From the NCBI GenBank assembly GCA_005191425.1, contig SUPR01000059.1, forward strand, positions 1 through 22,361: a stretch of 22,361 bases of DNA, written 5' to 3'. This stretch comes from Candidatus Helarchaeota ASGARD archaeon Hel_GB_B (GTDB taxonomy: Archaea > Asgardarchaeota > Lokiarchaeia > Helarchaeales > HEL-GB-B). Positions 11,860 through 22,361 of the stretch are shown here, piece by piece. The notes under the pieces were generated by a model. That model was not told where the DNA came from. It saw only the letters and a list, made by a program, of their open reading frames with translations, and did not search any database. Position 1 is the first letter of the stretch, and every line of letters begins with the position of its first letter. A program made the position numbers and the translations under genes.

Positions 11860-14028
11860 TCATTTATTTTTAATTAGTTCTTCTAATTTATTGTCTGGGA
11901 TTTTTTGCCAGTGAGAAAATACAGTTTGCCAAAATGCCCACCCCGAAGTTTTCGACCTGATTTCATTGGACAGATTAAATGTTTCACTTACCGGAATGTA
12001 TCCAGTGACCTTGGAATAAGACCCTTCAGGCTCAATTTTATCGATTTTACCCCTCCTACTCTCGATAATAGAAGTGCATTTACCAATATAATTAGAAGGA
12101 GTTATAATTTGAATTTTATAAATAGGCTCTAATATGATTGGATTTAATTTATTAAGTTCCATTAGAAAAGAACTCTGAAATTCCTTAACAATCATAATTG
12201 GGCCTAAATTCAGTAATGATTCATCGATAATACTATTATTGACCATTATTTTAAGCCCAAATATTTTTTCTCTAATTAGCGGGCCTTTTTGCAATAATAA
12301 CTTGAATAAATTTATTAAAAATTGGTTATATTCGTCCCTTTTTTTATTTATAACTTTTTGGTGCGTATCAAGATAAGTAATTAAGATATTATTTTTCCCG
12401 ATAATGGAGAAATTTAATTTATCTTTATTTACATTTTCAGACTCATCAAGAAAGTTAATTAGAATAGATTTTAATTCGTCCGGAGGTAAATCATGATAGA
12501 TAGTTCCCTTTTGAAATAAATCTAAGATTTTTTGGTCTAATGGTCTAATTTGATATTCAATAGAAAACATATCATCATTAGATTTAAAATTTAATATATT
12601 ACTCTCTTTATAAATACTTTCTGTATAAATTACAAGAGGTTTACTTGTAATAATTTTAATACCCAAATCTTCAATTTCTTTTTTGATGATTTCAAGGTGT
12701 AATTCACCCATTCCAGATATAAGATATTCTCCTGTGTCATTATTTATTATAATTTCTAAATTGGGGTCTTCAATACTAATTTTTTGTAAAATTTCGACCA
12801 TTTTTTTCAATTCTCTTGGGTGATATGGTTCAATTGAAATAGTCATGACAGGATCTTGGTTGTAATGGATCTGTTCAAACGGAAAACCAAGATTCTTATA
12901 TTTCCAATCAATTAATGTTTCTCCAATTAACAAATCTTTATTTCCGGATAGACCAATAATATTTCCTGCTTTAATTTCTTTTACCGAATTTTTATTAGCA
13001 CCCATATAAATATATAAATTTAAAACGCGGAATTCATCTTGTTTATTCAATAAAAATAGTTTATCGCCTATCTTAATAGTACCTGAAAAAATTCTTCCGA
13101 CAGCTATCCTTCCAGAATGTATATCATTAATAATTTTATTTATCTCTATCAATGTAATACCGGAACTATCACACTCAACAAGATTTTTGCCTAATTTTGA
13201 ATTGATGTCTCCTTTCCATATTCGAGGAATCCTATAACTTTGAGCGGAATTAGGACTAGGTATATTTGTAATAATAGCATCTATTATTGCAGCATCTAAG
13301 GGAAATAAATCATATCCAAATTTTCTATAATTAAAAATATCGTCATATTTTTCATAAATTTCCATAATACTATTAAATTTTTTACCTGTTTGGATCATTT
13401 GTCTAAAAGTAAAACCCCAGTGATGTAATGCAGACCCAAACACCACATTATTTTTATGCGGGACAATTTTCCATTTTTCGTAGTAATAATCCGGTAAATT
13501 ATTTTTGAGAATTTTATTAAATATCTGGATAATTAAATCTAGTCTTTTTTGAATTTTTGATTCATTTAGCTTTAGTTCCTTGATCAATCGGTCAATCTTG
13601 TTGATAAATAAAACAGGTCTTATTAATTCTTGCATTGCTTGTCTTGTTAATATCTCAGTTTGTACCATGCAGCCTTCAACTGCATCAACAACCACAATTA
13701 CACCGTCAATAACTCTGAGAGCTCTCGTTACTTTTCCACTAAAATCGACATGCCCTGGAGTATCAACTAAATTAATTATATAATTATCGGCTAATAAAGA
13801 AATATTAGCTGCTTTGATAGTAATTCCTCGTTTTTGTTCTTCGTCAAGAAAATCAAGTACGCGGGCATCCCCAGCAATAGATTTAGAAATTATACCAGAT
13901 TTTGATAAAAGAATATCTGAGAGAGTAGTTTTTCCATGGTCTATGTGAGCAATAATTCCTACATTTTTGATGTGTTTAGAATTTTCCATTAGTTTTAATA
14001 TTTGTTCCCAATTTTTAATATGTACCAA
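11860..14028 (-). CDS. fusA: Archaeal elongation factor 2 paralog (aEF-2p-like) lacking the diphthamide histidine
   Basis: Intact G motifs (AHIDHGKTT, RGITI, DTPGHVDF, NKID, GSA) and EF-2 domains II-V. The HEDAIHRGP loop is replaced by DESLLNLGP and the C-terminal RKGL tail is missing. Not in an str operon. TTG start with GGTGAT in the rnz 3' end. Confidence 0.88.
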   Translation of the reverse strand: MVHIKNWEQILKLMENSKHIKNVGIIAHIDHGKTTLSDILLSKSGIISKSIAGDARVLDFLDEEQKRGITIKAANISLLADNYIINLVDTPGHVDFSGKVTRALRVIDGVIVVVDAVEGCMVQTEILTRQAMQELIRPVLFINKIDRLIKELKLNESKIQKRLDLIIQIFNKILKNNLPDYYYEKWKIVPHKNNVVFGSALHHWGFTFRQMIQTGKKFNSIMEIYEKYDDIFNYRKFGYDLFPLDAAIIDAIITNIPSPNSAQSYRIPRIWKGDINSKLGKNLVECDSSGITLIEINKIINDIHSGRIAVGRIFSGTIKIGDKLFLLNKQDEFRVLNLYIYMGANKNSVKEIKAGNIIGLSGNKDLLIGETLIDWKYKNLGFPFEQIHYNQDPVMTISIEPYHPRELKKMVEILQKISIEDPNLEIIINNDTGEYLISGMGELHLEIIKKEIEDLGIKIITSKPLVIYTESIYKESNILNFKSNDDMFSIEYQIRPLDQKILDLFQKGTIYHDLPPDELKSILINFLDESENVNKDKLNFSIIGKNNILITYLDTHQKVINKKRDEYNQFLINLFKLLLQKGPLIREKIFGLKIMVNNSIIDESLLNLGPIMIVKEFQSSFLMELNKLNPIILEPIYKIQIITPSNYIGKCTSIIESRRGKIDKIEPEGSYSKVTGYIPVSETFNLSNEIRSKTSGWAFWQTVFSHWQKIPDNKLEELIKNK

Positions 14029-14031
14029 GAT

Positions 14032-14952
14032 TTAATCACCATTTCGATATTTTACCTCAATTTTTGTAAGGTCATCAGGGAAAATTGTATCAGGAAAAAT
14101 ATCTTGTGTTTCTTCCATTAATTCAGAAATATCAGTATATCTCGAACTGAAATGGACTAATACTAGCTTCCTAACTCCAGCTTGCTTTGCTAGTTCTGCA
14201 GATTCTTTAACAGTAGAATGTTTAGTTTCCAATGCTTTATCTAACAGTTTATAACTAAATGTCCCGTCCATAATTAATAAATCAGCGTCTTTTGCAGAAT
14301 TTAGTATATCCTTAGTTGGTCTGGTATCAAGAGCTATGACAATTTTACGACCTGGACGCGGTTCACCAACAACTTGATTAGAAAAAATTTTTCTTCCATC
14401 ATTTAAAGTAATATCTTCTCCTTCTTGAAGTTTTTTCCATAATGGGCCAATTGGAATATTTAATTCAAGAGCTTTATCTCTATTAAACTTGCCTTTTCTA
14501 GGTTTCTCTTTAAATATATAATACAAACAGAAACATCCATGTTCAGCAAGTCCTGTTAAAATAAAAAATTCTTTATCTTCAAAAATAATGGCAGGTCTAT
14601 TAATTTCTTTCACTATGACATTAAAATTTATGTTCAATATAATTGAATTTAAAATGCAATCAATAAAATTGGCAGTCCCAGGTGGCCCGAAAATAAAAAG
14701 GTCATCTTTTCTATTTAGTAAATCAGAGGACATTAATATACCTGGAATTCCCATAATATGATCGCCATGTAAATGAGTAATGTAAATGGAATGAATTTTT
14801 AATAAACTTAATTTTACTTTAAAAAACTGTTGCTGTGAATTTTCTCCAGGATCGAATAGATAAATTTTACCTTTCCTTTTAATTGCAATACTAGTTAAAT
14901 TTCTATTTTTTGTAGGTATTGTTCCCGAAGTTCCTAAAAAATAAATCTCCAT
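14032..14952 (-). CDS. rnz: Ribonuclease Z (tRNA 3' endonuclease)
   Basis: FLGTSG, DPGE, THLHGDH, GP-rich exosite (IPIGPLWKKLQEG), HST..E and HFSSRY. Confidence 0.96.
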   Translation of the reverse strand: MEIYFLGTSGTIPTKNRNLTSIAIKRKGKIYLFDPGENSQQQFFKVKLSLLKIHSIYITHLHGDHIMGIPGILMSSDLLNRKDDLFIFGPPGTANFIDCILNSIILNINFNVIVKEINRPAIIFEDKEFFILTGLAEHGCFCLYYIFKEKPRKGKFNRDKALELNIPIGPLWKKLQEGEDITLNDGRKIFSNQVVGEPRPGRKIVIALDTRPTKDILNSAKDADLLIMDGTFSYKLLDKALETKHSTVKESAELAKQAGVRKLVLVHFSSRYTDISELMEETQDIFPDTIFPDDLTKIEVKYRNGD

Positions 14953-14967
14953 TTTATATACCCATCA

Positions 14968-16023
14968 TTATTTTACTCTAATAATCCACAAATTCCGGAT
15001 AAGTGATCTATGTATATAATAATCATATTTTCTGACGATAATAAAATCCATCTTTTTTAAAATTTCTTCAATATAATTTCCATAAATATTTGGTGTCGCA
15101 AATACAATTTTATTATTATTATAAATAATATCTTTGCATTGAGATAGAAAATTTTTGTATAATTTAAAAATTGATGAACTTTTGAGTGGTGATGATCTAC
15201 CATAAGGAGGGTCTGTTATAATGTTATCAATTTTTTTAATTGGGAGAATCTGAGAATCCGCTCTAAATATCATAAAATTTGAGATTTTATAATAATTTAA
15301 ATTGATCTTGCTTGCATGTATCATTTTCCAACTTATATCAGAACCAATCACATGATAATTTAATATTCCAGCTTCAATTAAAATGGAACCAATACCACAA
15401 TGCGGATCATATATAACTGCTCCACTTTTAATTTCTGCCAAATTTACCATTAACCTTGCAAATTTCGCGTCCATACCGCAGGGATGAAAGTAAGGCCTAT
15501 TTGGTCCGGATCTTTCATAAAATTCTTTTGAATTACTTTTATGTAATTCAATTCCAAAAATTAACGAACCATTTACAATAATACCTTTAAATTTTAATTC
15601 AGGACTCACTAAATCTACTTTTAAATTATTTTTAAATTTTGTAAGTATCAGAGCACCAATATATGATTCCAATTGGACTGAACTTAAACTATGACTCAAA
15701 TTTTTATGCATTTTTTTTATTTTTTCAATTCTAACTGAAAAAGAATATACGCGCGGTTCTTGAAAAGTCATTTCCATATCATTTATTGCAGTCTTAATGG
15801 AATTGAAATCCAAATTACATTTAAATAATAAAGTATAAACACCTTTACAAAATGCAGCCCTGTTAATTATCTCTCGATATCCATTATCTTCCAAATCAAG
15901 TATTAAACAATTGTCTACTTTTTCAATAACACTATATGAGATATCACTAGACTTCAATATTCCAAGAATTTCATCATTTGGTAAAGTTGGATGAATCCCA
16001 GCTAAAATACAGAATATTCTCAT
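14968..16023 (-). CDS. trm11: tRNA (guanine-10, N2)-(di)methyltransferase, THUMP + methylase (aTrm11/TrmG10)
   Basis: THUMP domain, ARLMVNLA, YDPHCGIGSILIE, GSDI and TDPPYGRSS. Adjacent to rnz. Confidence 0.88.
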   Translation of the reverse strand: MRIFCILAGIHPTLPNDEILGILKSSDISYSVIEKVDNCLILDLEDNGYREIINRAAFCKGVYTLLFKCNLDFNSIKTAINDMEMTFQEPRVYSFSVRIEKIKKMHKNLSHSLSSVQLESYIGALILTKFKNNLKVDLVSPELKFKGIIVNGSLIFGIELHKSNSKEFYERSGPNRPYFHPCGMDAKFARLMVNLAEIKSGAVIYDPHCGIGSILIEAGILNYHVIGSDISWKMIHASKINLNYYKISNFMIFRADSQILPIKKIDNIITDPPYGRSSPLKSSSIFKLYKNFLSQCKDIIYNNNKIVFATPNIYGNYIEEILKKMDFIIVRKYDYYIHRSLIRNLWIIRVK

Positions 16024-17764: not shown

Positions 17765-20700
17765 TCATAATTTTTTTCGTAATCGCCTTATCCAAGGTTT
17801 TATCTCACTCCAATCATATCTAAGAATTTCAGGTTCAAATTTTAAATTCCAATTTTTTAATTTCCTTTTAATTAATTCTTTAAGTTCAATATCATAACAA
17901 ATAATAACAATATTGACATTGGATAATTGCACCTCTTGAATTGAAAGATCTGTCCTTAATTGTTCTATTTCATTTTCTTCAAAAATTAAATTTATTATTA
18001 TGGAAAAGTTAGGTAAAAATATATCATAATTTATTTCTATGTCAAATGCTTTATTGTCTGTCCTAAAACTGATATCATTATTAGATAACTGTTCAATTAT
18101 ATTTTTTTTAAGTATTTTTTTCCCAGATATTCTATTAGCCCAGCCATAATATATATCATATAAATTATTATTGTCTAAATTATATATTTTATAACTTTTT
18201 AAGTTTTTAATAGGAGCTATTTTTTTTTCTACTAATGAAATATTACACCCTAAATAATCTGAAATTTCTTCAACTTTAGGAAAATCAGTCCCAAATTTTT
18301 CAAGTAATACATCGGGATAATAATCAGAGAAATCTTGTTTTATTTCTTCAATAATTTGATAATCATCAAGTTTTTCTAAAGATCTTTTATTAAAATTGAT
18401 GGTATCATTCATTTTTTTATTATCAATAAAAGAATTAAAGTGCATTGAATCTTGGCCTATATTATTTTTGGATTGACTATTATAAGTTAAAAATTGGAGG
18501 TTATGATTTAATCCATTTTCTATAAGTTTTTCTAATTCATTCCAATCATTATTATTAAAACTAAATACAAATATTTCATTATAATTCCATTTATTTAACC
18601 AATTTTTTATTTTAATTTTATCAGAAATAAAGCCTGTTATAATAATAAATTGATTTATTTCTTTTTCACAAGATTCCATCATTAAATCAGTAAATTGTTT
18701 TCTGAAATTATCTTGATTTATCATATTATATTCTTGGACATATAATTTGATCAAGATATTTTCCGTAAACCAAATATAATCAAACAAGCTGCCTTTTTCT
18801 GCATAACCAAATATTCCTGGTTGTACAAATTCACGTTCGATTAAATTTTTAACAGCATTTAACAAATAATCAGTCCCATCATTTAAGCAATACCATTTTT
18901 GCAATTTGTTTTTTTCAAAAACGGGCACTAATTTCGAAGATATAATTCCATTTTCAATCAGTTCTTCAATTTCAAGTTCAAATTCTTCAAGATTTATATT
19001 CAATTTAGCAATAATTTGATATTTATTAAGAGGATTTCTAATCAAAATATCGCGTAATTTAAGATAGAAATATTTTCCCTTGCTGGAAAGATTTTTCCAA
19101 TAAATTTTTTCCCAATCTTGAAGGTTAAAATCATTATCTTCAAAAATTTGATTTTGAATTTCATTGTGACTTAAATTTTGTTCATTATTTTTAATAATAT
19201 AATTATTTCTATCAAGATATACAATAGATTTGCCTCGTTTTGTTGGGTTGTTAGGTTGTTCATTATTGTTTTGAGTAGAATTACTTATTTCAATATAATT
19301 TTTTGAAGATCTTTGAATACTTGAACCGTCCATATCTAAATCATTTGTATTTTTATAAATAAAGGGAAAATGGAACTTATTGTTTTCATATATTTCTTTC
19401 TTTGAAACATGATCAAAATATGAATCAATTGTCCTGATCCTAAATGGATATGAAAAACTTGGGATTGTAATTATAGCCTCTCTTTTTGGCATTATTTTTA
19501 AGTATTCTTCTTGTTCTTTATTCAAATTTTGATAATTTGCAATTTTCTTGGCATCATAAGTACTTCTAAAGGACACTTTAATACCAGAATTACTTATAAT
19601 GTCTGGACTTATTTCAGGCCTTGTGGCGATTGTTATCATACTTTGTCCAACACCCCTTAATAATAATGGAATATCTTCACCCAAATTTGTTTCTGCAACT
19701 TCCCTTAAGATCGCTGGTAATAATAATTGAGAGTCTTCTATTACAATTATGTGTTTTAATTCTTGAGTTAGCCCACGGCGAAGAGCATTATCAAATATAA
19801 ATTTTAAAATTAAGTTCATCAGAAATCGGACATCTTGTTTAGTCCCACCATTACTTAGTAAATAGTTAAAATCAAAAATTACCTTCTTGTCCATCAAACT
19901 TTGAAATTTGAAATTTGTTTTATCTACATAAAAAATCTTTTTTAAATTTCCAGACCGAAATCTATCGAACCTGTTTTCTAATGAATTTATAGTCATTCGG
20001 ATTGTTGGATTTTTTGTTGAATTATTTCGGAGATAAATTTTAAGCTCTTCAAAAAAAGCTTTAAGACTTCTTTTAGAGGGATCGCATACCACTTCTTTTA
20101 TAACTTCGCGGCATACTTTTTCCATTTGGATTGAAAGTTCTGTTTTGTTTTGAAAATCAGATTTAAATAACTCGACTATTATTGAAAATAGTTTTCTTGC
20201 ATGCTCTTCCTCATTGCTATCATAAGGGTCGAACATATTTATCTGAAAAGGCGCTTCGATAGAACCTGGTCTGAGTACTAAAATAGGAATATTATCTTTA
20301 TTTTTTATTAACTCTACATAGTCACCTTTCCAGTCTAAACATATCCAATTTATTTCAGGATAAAACTTCGATATATTTTTCAGGATATTTTTTACAAATG
20401 TTGTTTTCCCCATTCCAATTAAACCGGTAACGAACATATTTAATCTAAGGTCCATAACATCCAGACCTACTTGAAATAAATCAGTTTTGTCTCTAAATAA
20501 TGCAGTCCCGATAACTAATTTTTGTTCTACAATATCTTTTGGTGGTATTTCAAAATTTGGGATATTAGTCCTATTTATTGAAGGAAATGGTTCTTCGGGT
20601 AAGTGTAAATATGTTGCAAGCCTTTCACTTGTTAATATTGAATCTTTGCCTAATTTATCTCTAATAATAAGTTTTGGTAAGATGTAATATAATAAATTTT

Positions 20701-22087
20701 TTTTAACTATTTCTAAATCGATTGAATGTTGATTACCACTAAATATTGAATCAATTATAGCAATTATTTTTTTTGAACTTCGTTGTATCTCTTCAAAATT
20801 ATAAGACCTTATAATAAAATATGCAGAAACCCGCCATAATGCAGTTATTTCAACATGTCTAATTTTCAATATTTTTTGTCGGAAATCGTTTTCGGGGATA
20901 TTTGTAAGGTCATAAAAAGGATTGTTTTCCCCATTTTTAAATTTATAAAGTTCAAAAGGCTGGAAATTAATGATAAAACTACCATTTGAAATATTACTAC
21001 CCAATATAGACATTATTAAATTGTCAATTTGAGTTCTTTTTGAATATGCCTTAATTTCTGGTTTTCCAATTAATTTTATTATCTGTAAATATAATTTCTT
21101 TTCTTTTTGGTTAATTTCTAAAATATCTTCCTCATTAATTTTTATATTAAATTTACCTATACCACCAATTACATCAGACCAAGCTTTTCTTAAGGCATCG
21201 CCATCTAAAATAGTAAATTTCAATTCTGGAAATGATGTTTTGTAGATTTCGATTATAATATCAATTTTTGACCTCAAATCTTTTAAAAGTTCCTCCAGAT
21301 TTTTCCCCTCCATTGTAAAAAATAATCTTAAATGAACTTTATTACTCTCTATTGTTATTTCATAACTAAAACTAACCTCTTCAAGATAATTAAATAATGC
21401 TGTAAGATGGTAATGTAAATAATGTTGGTTATTATTAACAAATATTTTTTCTATATTTTTCATCAACAGTCTATTTTCTCTGACTTGAATGTTTTTAGGG
21501 ATATTTGAAACTTCTAATATGGAAATAATCCTATAATAACCTTTTTTACTAGATAATACAACAGCTTGACCGATAATTTTATGATTTATAACTTTATATT
21601 TTAAGTTTCCTGCAATTAAATAATTTTTAATCAGAATATAAATAATAATTATTGACCAAATACCAAAAAATACTATAATTTTTAGTATCCACATACCTAT
21701 TATTAACATCGAATTAATTACTATAATTTGAATTTCAGAAGGAATAATACCCAGTCCAATAATCATTTCAGTAATACTTATTGTGATACCCAATAAGACA
21801 ATAATTAATTCAATTTTTTTTAAATATTTAGAGGTATTTTTTTTCGTTCTAAAATAATCTACGATGAGAATAGCAATACAAAAAAATAAAATTGTAAAAA
21901 TAAGGGCTGTATAAAATTTAAAATAGTTTAATATATTTCCTATAAATATTAAATTCGAGAATCGTATATTGTTTATCAAAATATTAATAACTAATAAAAT
22001 AACTCCATATATTAAAAAAATAAAAAAACAGATTTTTAATAAATTCACTCTACTTTTGAGACTTTTTTTATTTTTATAATGTTTCAC
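17765..22087 (-). CDS. Membrane-anchored HerA/VirB4-like (DUF87-type) P-loop ATPase with duplicated C-terminal modules
   Basis: 1440 aa with ~4-5 N-terminal TM segments. Walker A GLIGMGKTT, LDWKGDY, variant Walker B IVIEDSQ and LLRGVG Arg-finger region. An N/Q-rich linker is followed by two ~180-aa similar modules. GTG start. Confidence 0.8.
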   Translation of the reverse strand: MKHYKNKKSLKSRVNLLKICFFIFLIYGVILLVINILINNIRFSNLIFIGNILNYFKFYTALIFTILFFCIAILIVDYFRTKKNTSKYLKKIELIIVLLGITISITEMIIGLGIIPSEIQIIVINSMLIIGMWILKIIVFFGIWSIIIIYILIKNYLIAGNLKYKVINHKIIGQAVVLSSKKGYYRIISILEVSNIPKNIQVRENRLLMKNIEKIFVNNNQHYLHYHLTALFNYLEEVSFSYEITIESNKVHLRLFFTMEGKNLEELLKDLRSKIDIIIEIYKTSFPELKFTILDGDALRKAWSDVIGGIGKFNIKINEEDILEINQKEKKLYLQIIKLIGKPEIKAYSKRTQIDNLIMSILGSNISNGSFIINFQPFELYKFKNGENNPFYDLTNIPENDFRQKILKIRHVEITALWRVSAYFIIRSYNFEEIQRSSKKIIAIIDSIFSGNQHSIDLEIVKKNLLYYILPKLIIRDKLGKDSILTSERLATYLHLPEEPFPSINRTNIPNFEIPPKDIVEQKLVIGTALFRDKTDLFQVGLDVMDLRLNMFVTGLIGMGKTTFVKNILKNISKFYPEINWICLDWKGDYVELIKNKDNIPILVLRPGSIEAPFQINMFDPYDSNEEEHARKLFSIIVELFKSDFQNKTELSIQMEKVCREVIKEVVCDPSKRSLKAFFEELKIYLRNNSTKNPTIRMTINSLENRFDRFRSGNLKKIFYVDKTNFKFQSLMDKKVIFDFNYLLSNGGTKQDVRFLMNLILKFIFDNALRRGLTQELKHIIVIEDSQLLLPAILREVAETNLGEDIPLLLRGVGQSMITIATRPEISPDIISNSGIKVSFRSTYDAKKIANYQNLNKEQEEYLKIMPKREAIITIPSFSYPFRIRTIDSYFDHVSKKEIYENNKFHFPFIYKNTNDLDMDGSSIQRSSKNYIEISNSTQNNNEQPNNPTKRGKSIVYLDRNNYIIKNNEQNLSHNEIQNQIFEDNDFNLQDWEKIYWKNLSSKGKYFYLKLRDILIRNPLNKYQIIAKLNINLEEFELEIEELIENGIISSKLVPVFEKNKLQKWYCLNDGTDYLLNAVKNLIEREFVQPGIFGYAEKGSLFDYIWFTENILIKLYVQEYNMINQDNFRKQFTDLMMESCEKEINQFIIITGFISDKIKIKNWLNKWNYNEIFVFSFNNNDWNELEKLIENGLNHNLQFLTYNSQSKNNIGQDSMHFNSFIDNKKMNDTINFNKRSLEKLDDYQIIEEIKQDFSDYYPDVLLEKFGTDFPKVEEISDYLGCNISLVEKKIAPIKNLKSYKIYNLDNNNLYDIYYGWANRISGKKILKKNIIEQLSNNDISFRTDNKAFDIEINYDIFLPNFSIIINLIFEENEIEQLRTDLSIQEVQLSNVNIVIICYDIELKELIKRKLKNWNLKFEPEILRYDWSEIKPWIRRLRKKL

Positions 22088-22161: not shown

Positions 22162-22252
22162 AAGAACATTTGTCAGAAATTTGCGCAAAGAATCATTGAA
22201 ATCTTATCAAATTTCGTTCATTGCAGGTCAGTTTCATCATCCAAATGTTCTT
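22162..22252 (-). ncRNA. Box C/D 2'-O-methylation guide sRNA, predicted SSU rRNA helix-34 guide (U25/snR56-like)
   Basis: Minus strand: AAGAACATTTG-G-ATGATGA (C box 22240-22234), guide AACTGACCTGCA, ATGA (D' 22221-22218), 7-bp hairpin, ATGATTC (C' 22196-22190), TTTGCGCAAATTT, CTGA (D 22176-22173), CAAATGTTCTT. The terminal 11-mers are exact reverse complements and leave a 3-nt K-turn bulge. Confidence 0.88.
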
Positions 22253-22270
22253 ATAATAATTATATTTTGA

Positions 22271-22278
22271 AATATAAA
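22271..22278 (-). promoter_or_regulatory. Candidate TATA box (TTTATATT) for the C/D sRNA
   Basis: Centred about 22-25 nt upstream of the 5' end of the terminal stem, close to archaeal TATA spacing. Low specificity in AT-rich DNA. Confidence 0.45.
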
Positions 22279-22361
22279 TAAGGGGTTTTACCAAATTTGA
22301 ATTTTTTTTCGACTTAATTTTTAATCATTACTTTATAAATCTACCTCTAATTCTTTTAATG

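Follow-up and report, generated by a model that had tools for sequence, protein, structure and literature searches.

At the upper end of the window, by which we mean the whole stretch of 22,361 nt that was analysed, lies an element of ~91 nt that is read on the minus strand, 22252..22162. Its parts are listed in Table 1. It can be seen that all letters of the C box, the D box, the exact 11-bp stem and the 3-nt G-A-U bulge, which had been noted in a preliminary description of this DNA, are present on the minus strand. The 12-nt guide ahead of an AUGA box D', and the C encoded at 22226 as the D'+5 nucleotide, are likewise as given there on a reading of the sequence.

Table 1. Coordinates of the predicted box C/D guide RNA gene and of its upstream TATA-like stretch (positions are those of the window)
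Feature	Position	Strand	Remarks
5' stem arm AAGAACATTTG	22252-22242	minus	exact complement of 22162-22172; part of the 11-bp terminal stem
Unpaired G	22241	minus	forms the 3-nt K-turn bulge with the first A and U of box C
Box C ATGATGA	22240-22234	minus	consensus RUGAUGA; TGATGA invariant across all homologs
D' guide AACTGACCTGCA, 12 nt	22233-22222	minus	nt 2-11 complementary to 16S GCAGGUCAGU
Box D' variant ATGA (AUGA)	22221-22218	minus	consensus CUGA; exactly 12 nt past box C
D'-C' spacer, 21 nt	22217-22197	minus	small hairpin in the minimum-free-energy fold, arms 22209-22215 and 22198-22204
Box C' variant ATGATTC (AUGAUUC)	22196-22190	minus	consensus RUGAUGA; first GA retained
Second (D) guide position TTTGCGCAAATTT, 13 nt	22189-22177	minus	orphan
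Box D CTGA	22176-22173	minus	consensus; invariant among homologs
3' stem arm CAAATGTTCTT	22172-22162	minus	abuts box D
TATA-like TTATTTATAT	22272-22281	minus	centre ~25 nt upstream of the stem; sequence reading

The terminal stem of the sRNA is Watson-Crick paired at 11 of 11 positions, and the kink-turn (K-turn) next to it has canonical geometry, with the helix abutting box D and then G-A-U unpaired ahead of the GA of box C. Within the internal motif the sixth letter of C', a U, can pair with the first letter of D', an A, at the place where the consensus has a G-C pair. As the G-A cores of D' and C' are kept and this A-U pair can form, we regard the internal motif as altered and not destroyed. 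The RNA is predicted to fold with -20.2 kcal/mol (z = -2.9 against shuffled sequences). The stretch TTATTTATAT is a possible promoter, though in a genome of 28% GC such a stretch is weak evidence; an A/T box resembling it lies ~24-31 nt upstream of the copy in G001, a genome of the same genus. A terminator function is also possible for the U-rich end of the 3' stem arm.

The last 77 nt of the window (22285-22361) belong to a multi-copy repeat, with identical copies at the end of contig C134 and inside contig C100 and a 92% copy in C90. The repeat starts 33 nt upstream of the sRNA, which itself lies outside it, and several environmental contigs break at 22280-22285. This repeat is probably the end of a mobile element, and probably also the reason why the contig stops 33 nt upstream of the sRNA. 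No RNA run was among those listed for the locus. In contigs from four vent and sediment DNA runs there were zero variants within the element, and the two nearest lay a little beyond its border (22104 and 22160). The next gene downstream, an ORF of 1440 aa (17765-22087, minus strand), encodes N-terminal membrane segments and a Walker-A-like GMGKTT, and it had no Pfam match at E<=0.01. Further neighbours at 11860-14028 and 14032-16023 (minus strand) are translation or RNA-processing genes, coding for aEF-2, an RNase Z-like metallo-beta-lactamase and a UPF0020/THUMP-type methyltransferase; no link between these neighbour genes and the sRNA was evident.

To see how unusual such an element is, we scanned the genome assembly (3.54 Mb, 28% GC, 94% complete) for all pairs of [AG]TGATGA and CTGA lying 35-95 nt apart. 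The pair described here was the sole one genome-wide with a closing stem of more than 8 bp, and 14 pairs had a stem of at least 6 bp, compared with 1 in a reversed-genome control. The pattern scan found no canonical C/D sRNA elsewhere in the genome. The only other match to a relaxed dual-guide C/D pattern lies on contig C106 (minus strand, ~26870 of the reverse complement) and reads ATGATGA, 11 nt, CTGA, 13 nt, ATGAATA, 12 nt, CTGA; this may be a second C/D sRNA. A genome-wide screen for further rRNA-complementary guides gave 43 matches against 20 in the control, a background too high for the screen to be of use. With regard to the protein partners, the genome carries a fibrillarin gene (308 bits) and two L7Ae-family genes. 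A Nop5 gene was not found in the 94% complete assembly; since only 112 nt separate the start of the fibrillarin gene from a contig edge, the assembly may have lost it.

Neither 16S nor 23S rRNA was found in the window's own assembly, and the pairing of the guide therefore rests on the rRNAs of relatives, the host's own 16S not having been assembled. We found that all same-class 16S sequences spanning the region contain GGCAGGTCAGTAT, mostly with GCCCC next to it, and the helix-34 sequence that the preliminary description had given is thus borne out in each related 16S read across this stretch. Nucleotides 2-11 of the guide can pair with GCAGGUCAGU in relatives' 16S over an unbroken run of ten Watson-Crick pairs, the upper end of the 9-10 bp that had been anticipated. 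When two to three 16S and two 23S sequences were scanned, this helix-34 duplex came out as the unique top match, with a score of 10 and a runner-up of at most 8. The D'+5 nucleotide faces the first G of CAGGUC and is Watson-Crick paired with it. That G we take to be E. coli position 1197, with the numbering anchored on C1192 and m2G1207, and GCAGGUCAGU, which belongs to the 3' strand of helix 34, is presumably E. coli about 1194-1203. On this reading of the guide, the host's own helix 34 would be expected to read GGCAGGUCAGUA. In a pan-archaeal 16S alignment (Dennis et al., 2015, PMC4644070), the E. coli counterpart of the first G of CAGGUC is the first A of CAAGUC.

The second guide position, TTTGCGCAAATTT, reached a score of 9 neither in relatives' 16S and 23S nor in the 8 tRNAs parsed, 8 being all that the aragorn parse gave, so that the search for a tRNA target was incomplete. 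Comparison with the copies described below suggests that this position probably once carried a guide to the 5' strand of helix 34 and has since decayed. A separate observation concerns the 16S at locus L007 of G002, a genome of the same order, which at about locus positions 2725-2860 is ~128 nt longer than the other 16S sequences and diverges from them right after GGCAGGTCAGTAT. The divergence together with the extra length points to an insertion right where the target of the guide ends on its 3' side, and this insertion is probably an rRNA intron.

Homologs of the sRNA were sought by BLAST and by pattern searches in the genomes of relatives. The same-genus genome G001 matched over the 5' half at E = 6e-8 and retains box C, most of the guide and box D, and homologs are also carried by G003 and G005, which belong to the same order and to another family. 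The guide 12-mer of G005 is identical to that of the window despite diverged flanks, and the copy in G003 forms 10 pairs with its own 16S. The copy in G001 has a D' that reads AGGA and forms only 7 contiguous pairs with the canonical 16S sequence, and for this reason the guide may be decaying in this genus. Compensatory changes in the stem, for which a search of relatives had been proposed, were seen in both G001 and G003: for the A-U of the window at stem pair 5, G001 has G-C; for its C-G at pair 6, G001 has A-U and G003 has G-C; and for its A-U at pairs 10 and 11, G003 has U-A. These pairs were read by eye, as MAFFT alignments set the G003 stem one column off.

All four copies from the order preserve the GA core of D' (ATGA in two, AGGA in two) and the G-A core of C', and in G003 a C' of AUGAUUU occurs together with a D' of AUGA. 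The GAAA(U)/(A)UUUC arms of the spacer hairpin recur in G001 and G003. It can also be seen that guide and target co-vary, in that Hodarchaeales 16S GGUAGGUCAGUA has a U where their sRNA has an A, and 16S of the Lokiarchaeia class has a C where the guide in the window has a G. The gene neighbourhood is common to the window and G001 only, where the downstream 1440-aa protein is 47% identical to its ortholog. There is no shared synteny with G003 or G005, in which the copies adjoin unrelated genes. Since synteny is restricted to the genus, we take the element to be an independent RNA gene and not a leader of the 1440-aa ORF.

A pattern search across the phylum gave 26 matches in 25 of 400 genomes, the window's own included, compared with 2 in a reversed control. 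A helix-34 guide sRNA occurs in 4/4 Odin/Baldr genomes and in 16 of the 22 Hodarchaeales genomes. Searches failed to detect the sRNA in the order's three f2 genomes, which are 82-88% complete, and likewise in a sample of 41 genomes from the largest family of the class, for which a flexible-register pattern gave one chance match. Two-mismatch pattern matches in f2 and a BLAST match in G004 were also set aside as chance, all of them lying in coding regions. The distribution of the sRNA within Asgard archaea, as far as these searches reach, is patchy. A metagenome scan for copies with an A[TG]GA-type D' returned 114 stretches, essentially all of them chance matches in coding DNA and of no help for covariation; a possible unrelated sRNA (L237/L324) turned up in the same scan. 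The identification made in the preliminary description holds, and we regard the locus as a real box C/D guide RNA gene that annotation has missed. The genome is that of an Asgard archaeon, its relatives within the phylum being Hodarchaeota, Odinarchaeota, Baldrarchaeota and Promethearchaeota.

The copies in other Asgard groups help to explain the form of the gene in the window. In the Odin/Baldr genomes the layout is canonical for an archaeal dual guide: box C, a 12-nt guide, CUGA, a spacer of 4-5 nt, UGAUGA, a 12-nt AUGCACCUC-type guide and CUGA. The target to which this second guide is complementary, GGAGGUGCAUGG, forms the 5' strand of helix 34, and the second-guide targets of relatives lie at about E. 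coli G1050/G1051/U1052. Relatives carry an AUGCACC-type guide at the second-guide position; the Rfam family sR6 (RF01829) has the same second guide as the Odin/Baldr copies. As both guides of the relatives fit strands of helix 34, the ancestral RNA seems to have addressed both strands. Two guides on opposite strands of one helix have been read as a folding chaperone in addition to their role in methylation (Dennis et al., PMC4644070).

In the Hodarchaeales copies both guides are kept and the D'-C' spacer is ~36 nt long with a hairpin of ~10 bp. This hairpin (L039-L054, for example L051:1500-1600) has compensatory changes, and its loop keeps GGACACC, which is complementary to 16S AGGUGUCC some 30 nt downstream of the second guide's target; by analogy with what has been described for yeast snoRNAs, the loop may provide an accessory rRNA pairing. 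A 10-nt match to 16S that spans D' of one Hodarchaeales copy was put down to chance, since the copies do not conserve the stretch concerned. In the order to which the window belongs, the internal boxes are AUGA or AGGA together with an AUGAUUC-like box, the spacer is ~20 nt with a small hairpin, and the second guide is still recognisable in G001 as GAUGCACCC. On our reading the gene is a member of a family of helix-34 guides that is Asgard-wide and probably pan-archaeal. Judged from sequence, the copy in the window is a derived form with one working guide (as predicted), an 11-bp stem, relaxed C' and D' boxes and a decayed second guide. Its single-guide layout is eukaryote-like, being typical of eukaryotic snoRNAs.

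We consider it probable that this sRNA, a descendant of the dual-guide family, directs ribose methylation of one conserved G in 16S helix 34. The steps that we envisage are drawn from the established workings of archaeal C/D sRNPs. The terminal C/D kink-turn, with its 11-bp stem, 3-nt bulge and tandem sheared G-A pairs, would be bound by L7Ae, as would the internal D'/C' motif with its conserved G-A core, and a Nop5 dimer would then recruit fibrillarin. The 12-nt D' guide would pair with ten nucleotides of nascent 16S (GCAGGUCAGU), and fibrillarin would methylate the 2'-OH of the G (E. coli 1197) opposite the fifth guide nucleotide. In the history of the lineage the second guide would have decayed, C' and D' drifted, the spacer gained a hairpin and the stem lengthened to 11 bp. 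Transcription, RNP assembly and methylation are what we infer here; the features themselves, their conservation, the covariation and the complementarity are observed. Symmetric motifs are generally considered optimal for the activity of archaeal sRNPs, and the AUGA/AUGAUUC pair in the window departs from consensus.

A potential explanation that would not need to invoke methylation is that the element is a decaying relic of a dual helix-34 guide, perhaps still binding L7Ae in this genus or serving only as a folding chaperone that pairs with helix 34 and transfers no methyl group. The off-consensus D' and C' boxes and the orphan D guide fit such a state, as do the G001 copy of the same genus, with its 7 contiguous pairs and its AGGA box D', and the failure to find the sRNA in many of the related genomes searched. 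A chaperone role for dual guides to opposite strands has moreover been proposed earlier (PMC4644070). However, the window's genome (G000) and G005, though diverged at the level of families, have one and the same guide 12-mer and 10 pairs are kept in G003, the G-A cores of D' and C' persist in all four copies with the C to A change in D' matched by a G to U change in C', and the terminal K-turn is perfect, its stem having been maintained through compensatory changes. We therefore think a relic of this kind unlikely, and favour a guide that still directs methylation.

Two further explanations would deny that the locus is a guide RNA gene at all. The element lies ~75 nt upstream of the start of the 1440-aa ORF (22087) on the same strand, an arrangement that recurs in G001 upstream of the 47%-identity ortholog, and it might accordingly be a cis-acting 5' leader of that gene, for example a kink-turn through which L7Ae regulates translation; L7Ae-bound K-turns in archaeal mRNA leaders are known and were reportedly described in one study. 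Against this, the homologs in G003 and G005 adjoin unrelated genes, the conserved part is an rRNA-complementary guide for which a leader element would have no need, and other Asgard families have dozens of copies that are compact sRNAs standing by themselves, all of which makes a leader very improbable. Box motifs such as ATGATGA and CTGA are frequent at 28% GC and a 77-nt multi-copy repeat begins 33 nt upstream, so that a chance combination of motifs in AT-rich intergenic DNA, or a part of the neighbouring repeat, could be proposed instead. The element is, however, unique in the genome and outside the repeat, it is conserved in other families with compensatory changes, its guide and target co-vary, and the reversed-sequence controls were near zero; this reading is already contradicted by the conservation data, and we hold it to be improbable in the extreme. 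We conclude that a helix-34 methylation guide accounts best for the locus.

Some consequences follow for annotation and for the biology of the site. ORF-based pipelines miss guide RNAs, and no Rfam model detects this sRNA; the locus and its homologs in about 25 genomes could serve as the seed of an Asgard helix-34 sRNA family. The helix-34 segment around E. coli 1197 lines the A-site and the tetracycline pocket. That this guide seems to be retained in a genome which yielded no further canonical C/D sRNA hints that the modification, or the pairing, is important there.

The guide itself had been described before in another phylum. Pyrobaculum calidifontis (Thermoproteota) sR32 was published in 2015 with this guide core (Dennis et al., PMC4644070, supplement), and the 16S alignment of these authors bears the label 'P32' in this block (PMC4644070). 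Like the sRNA in the window, sR32 has UACUGACCUGCG directly upstream of an AUGA box, in the same register and with the same predicted helix-34 G as target. It differs in that the guide is the D guide and not the D' guide, in that it is a compact thermophile RNA of ~50 nt without a long terminal stem, and in that its other guide aims just downstream and not at the opposite helix-34 strand. As sR32 carries the guide, the site is not new for Archaea, and the novelty implied in the preliminary description does not stand, the same guide in the same register being found in many archaeal phyla. The locus is another copy of a widespread archaeal guide of which one copy had been catalogued before.

To assess how widespread, 185,579 species genomes were scanned for a box followed by two free nucleotides, CUGACCU, three more free nucleotides and then CUGA. 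Clear sRNAs came from Thermoproteota (including Desulfurococcales and Caldivirga), Nitrososphaerota, Nitrosocaldus, archaeon HR01, Methanobacteriota and Micrarchaeota; the same scan also returned many bacterial chance matches. The partner guide often addresses the other helix-34 strand, with the order of the guides either as in Asgard archaea or mirrored, the mirror-image order being seen in Methanobacteriota and Micrarchaeota MAGs. Going by these predicted guides, the site is guided in Asgard, TACK, DPANN and euryarchaeal lineages. On five DPANN contigs (L084, L126, L131, L133 and L151; Nanoarchaeia or 'uncultured archaeon') the box-guide-box unit lies directly upstream of a sequence that ends in a tRNA-like T-arm, GGTTCAAATCC, and this downstream sequence contains GTAGGTC, which is complementary to the guide. 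The unit there could be a box C/D element linked to or within a tRNA gene, with a tRNA as its target instead of 16S.

The compact dual guides of the Odin/Baldr genomes, Nitrososphaerota, Nitrosocaldus and HR01 share with the window a box C followed by a 12-nt guide containing CUGACCU and then D'. Unlike the window, they have consensus CUGA/UGAUGA internal boxes, a D'-C' spacer of 4-5 nt and little or no terminal stem, and they keep a working AUGCACCUC-type second guide. The Odin/Baldr copies, which come from the same phylum, are very probably orthologs of the sRNA in the window.

In eukaryotes, yeast snR56 is assigned to 18S Gm1428 and human U25 to Gm1490 (PMC4344503, PMC3511168), and the preliminary description had presented the locus as an archaeal counterpart of U25/snR56. 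The register agrees as had been proposed there, with the D'+5 nucleotide directed to the first G of CAGGUC: the consensus guides of snR56, DdR1 (Dictyostelium) and snoR25 (plant-type) all read GACCUG plus 2 nt and then the box, the comparison having been made at the locus itself for DdR1 and snoR25 and through the Odin/Baldr homolog for snR56. The eukaryotic 18S context at that site we take to be CAGGUC, an assumption that also rests on the guide consensus. The snR56/SNORD25 (U25)/AtsnoR19 group (Rfam clan CL00049) resembles the sRNA in the window in rRNA position, in having the guide upstream of D', and in its single functional guide, long terminal stem and non-consensus internal boxes; beyond the boxes and the guide, no sequence or structure similarity between them was detectable.

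Rfam searches of the whole window at gathering thresholds gave no match, SNORD25 and snR56, the families that the preliminary description had singled out for such a search, included. The SNORD25 covariance model run over the whole genome did not return the locus, and both SNORD25 and snR56 were absent from the list of matches at E<=10 for it. Permissive searches gave C/D families only at scores far below the Rfam thresholds: DdR1 and snoR25 aligned to the locus itself, and the snR56 model did so only to the copy of a relative, where it scored 19 bits (gathering score 54). Of the proposed counterpart, then, position and register stand: positional equivalence with U25/snR56 is supported by the predicted pairing, and homology to U25 cannot be shown, since a guide is forced by its conserved target and descent and convergence would look the same. 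Hoeppner & Poole (2012) took the same position on other archaeal-eukaryotic pairs, and the helix-34 pair is absent from their list.

It is conceivable, if in our view quite unlikely, that the helix-34 guide represents one RNA lineage running from archaea to eukaryotes, with the Asgard family as the direct ancestor of at least one snoRNA family of LECA and the form in the window as an architecture shift occurring inside Asgard. If this were true, the Asgard dual guides would cover the U25/snR56 site together with an opposite-strand site next to the snR40/U32 and snR55/U33 sites. Homology is not proved by the locus, which does offer a concrete case for testing descent against convergence, and adds one well-conserved positional equivalence between the guide RNAs of Archaea and those of eukaryotes.
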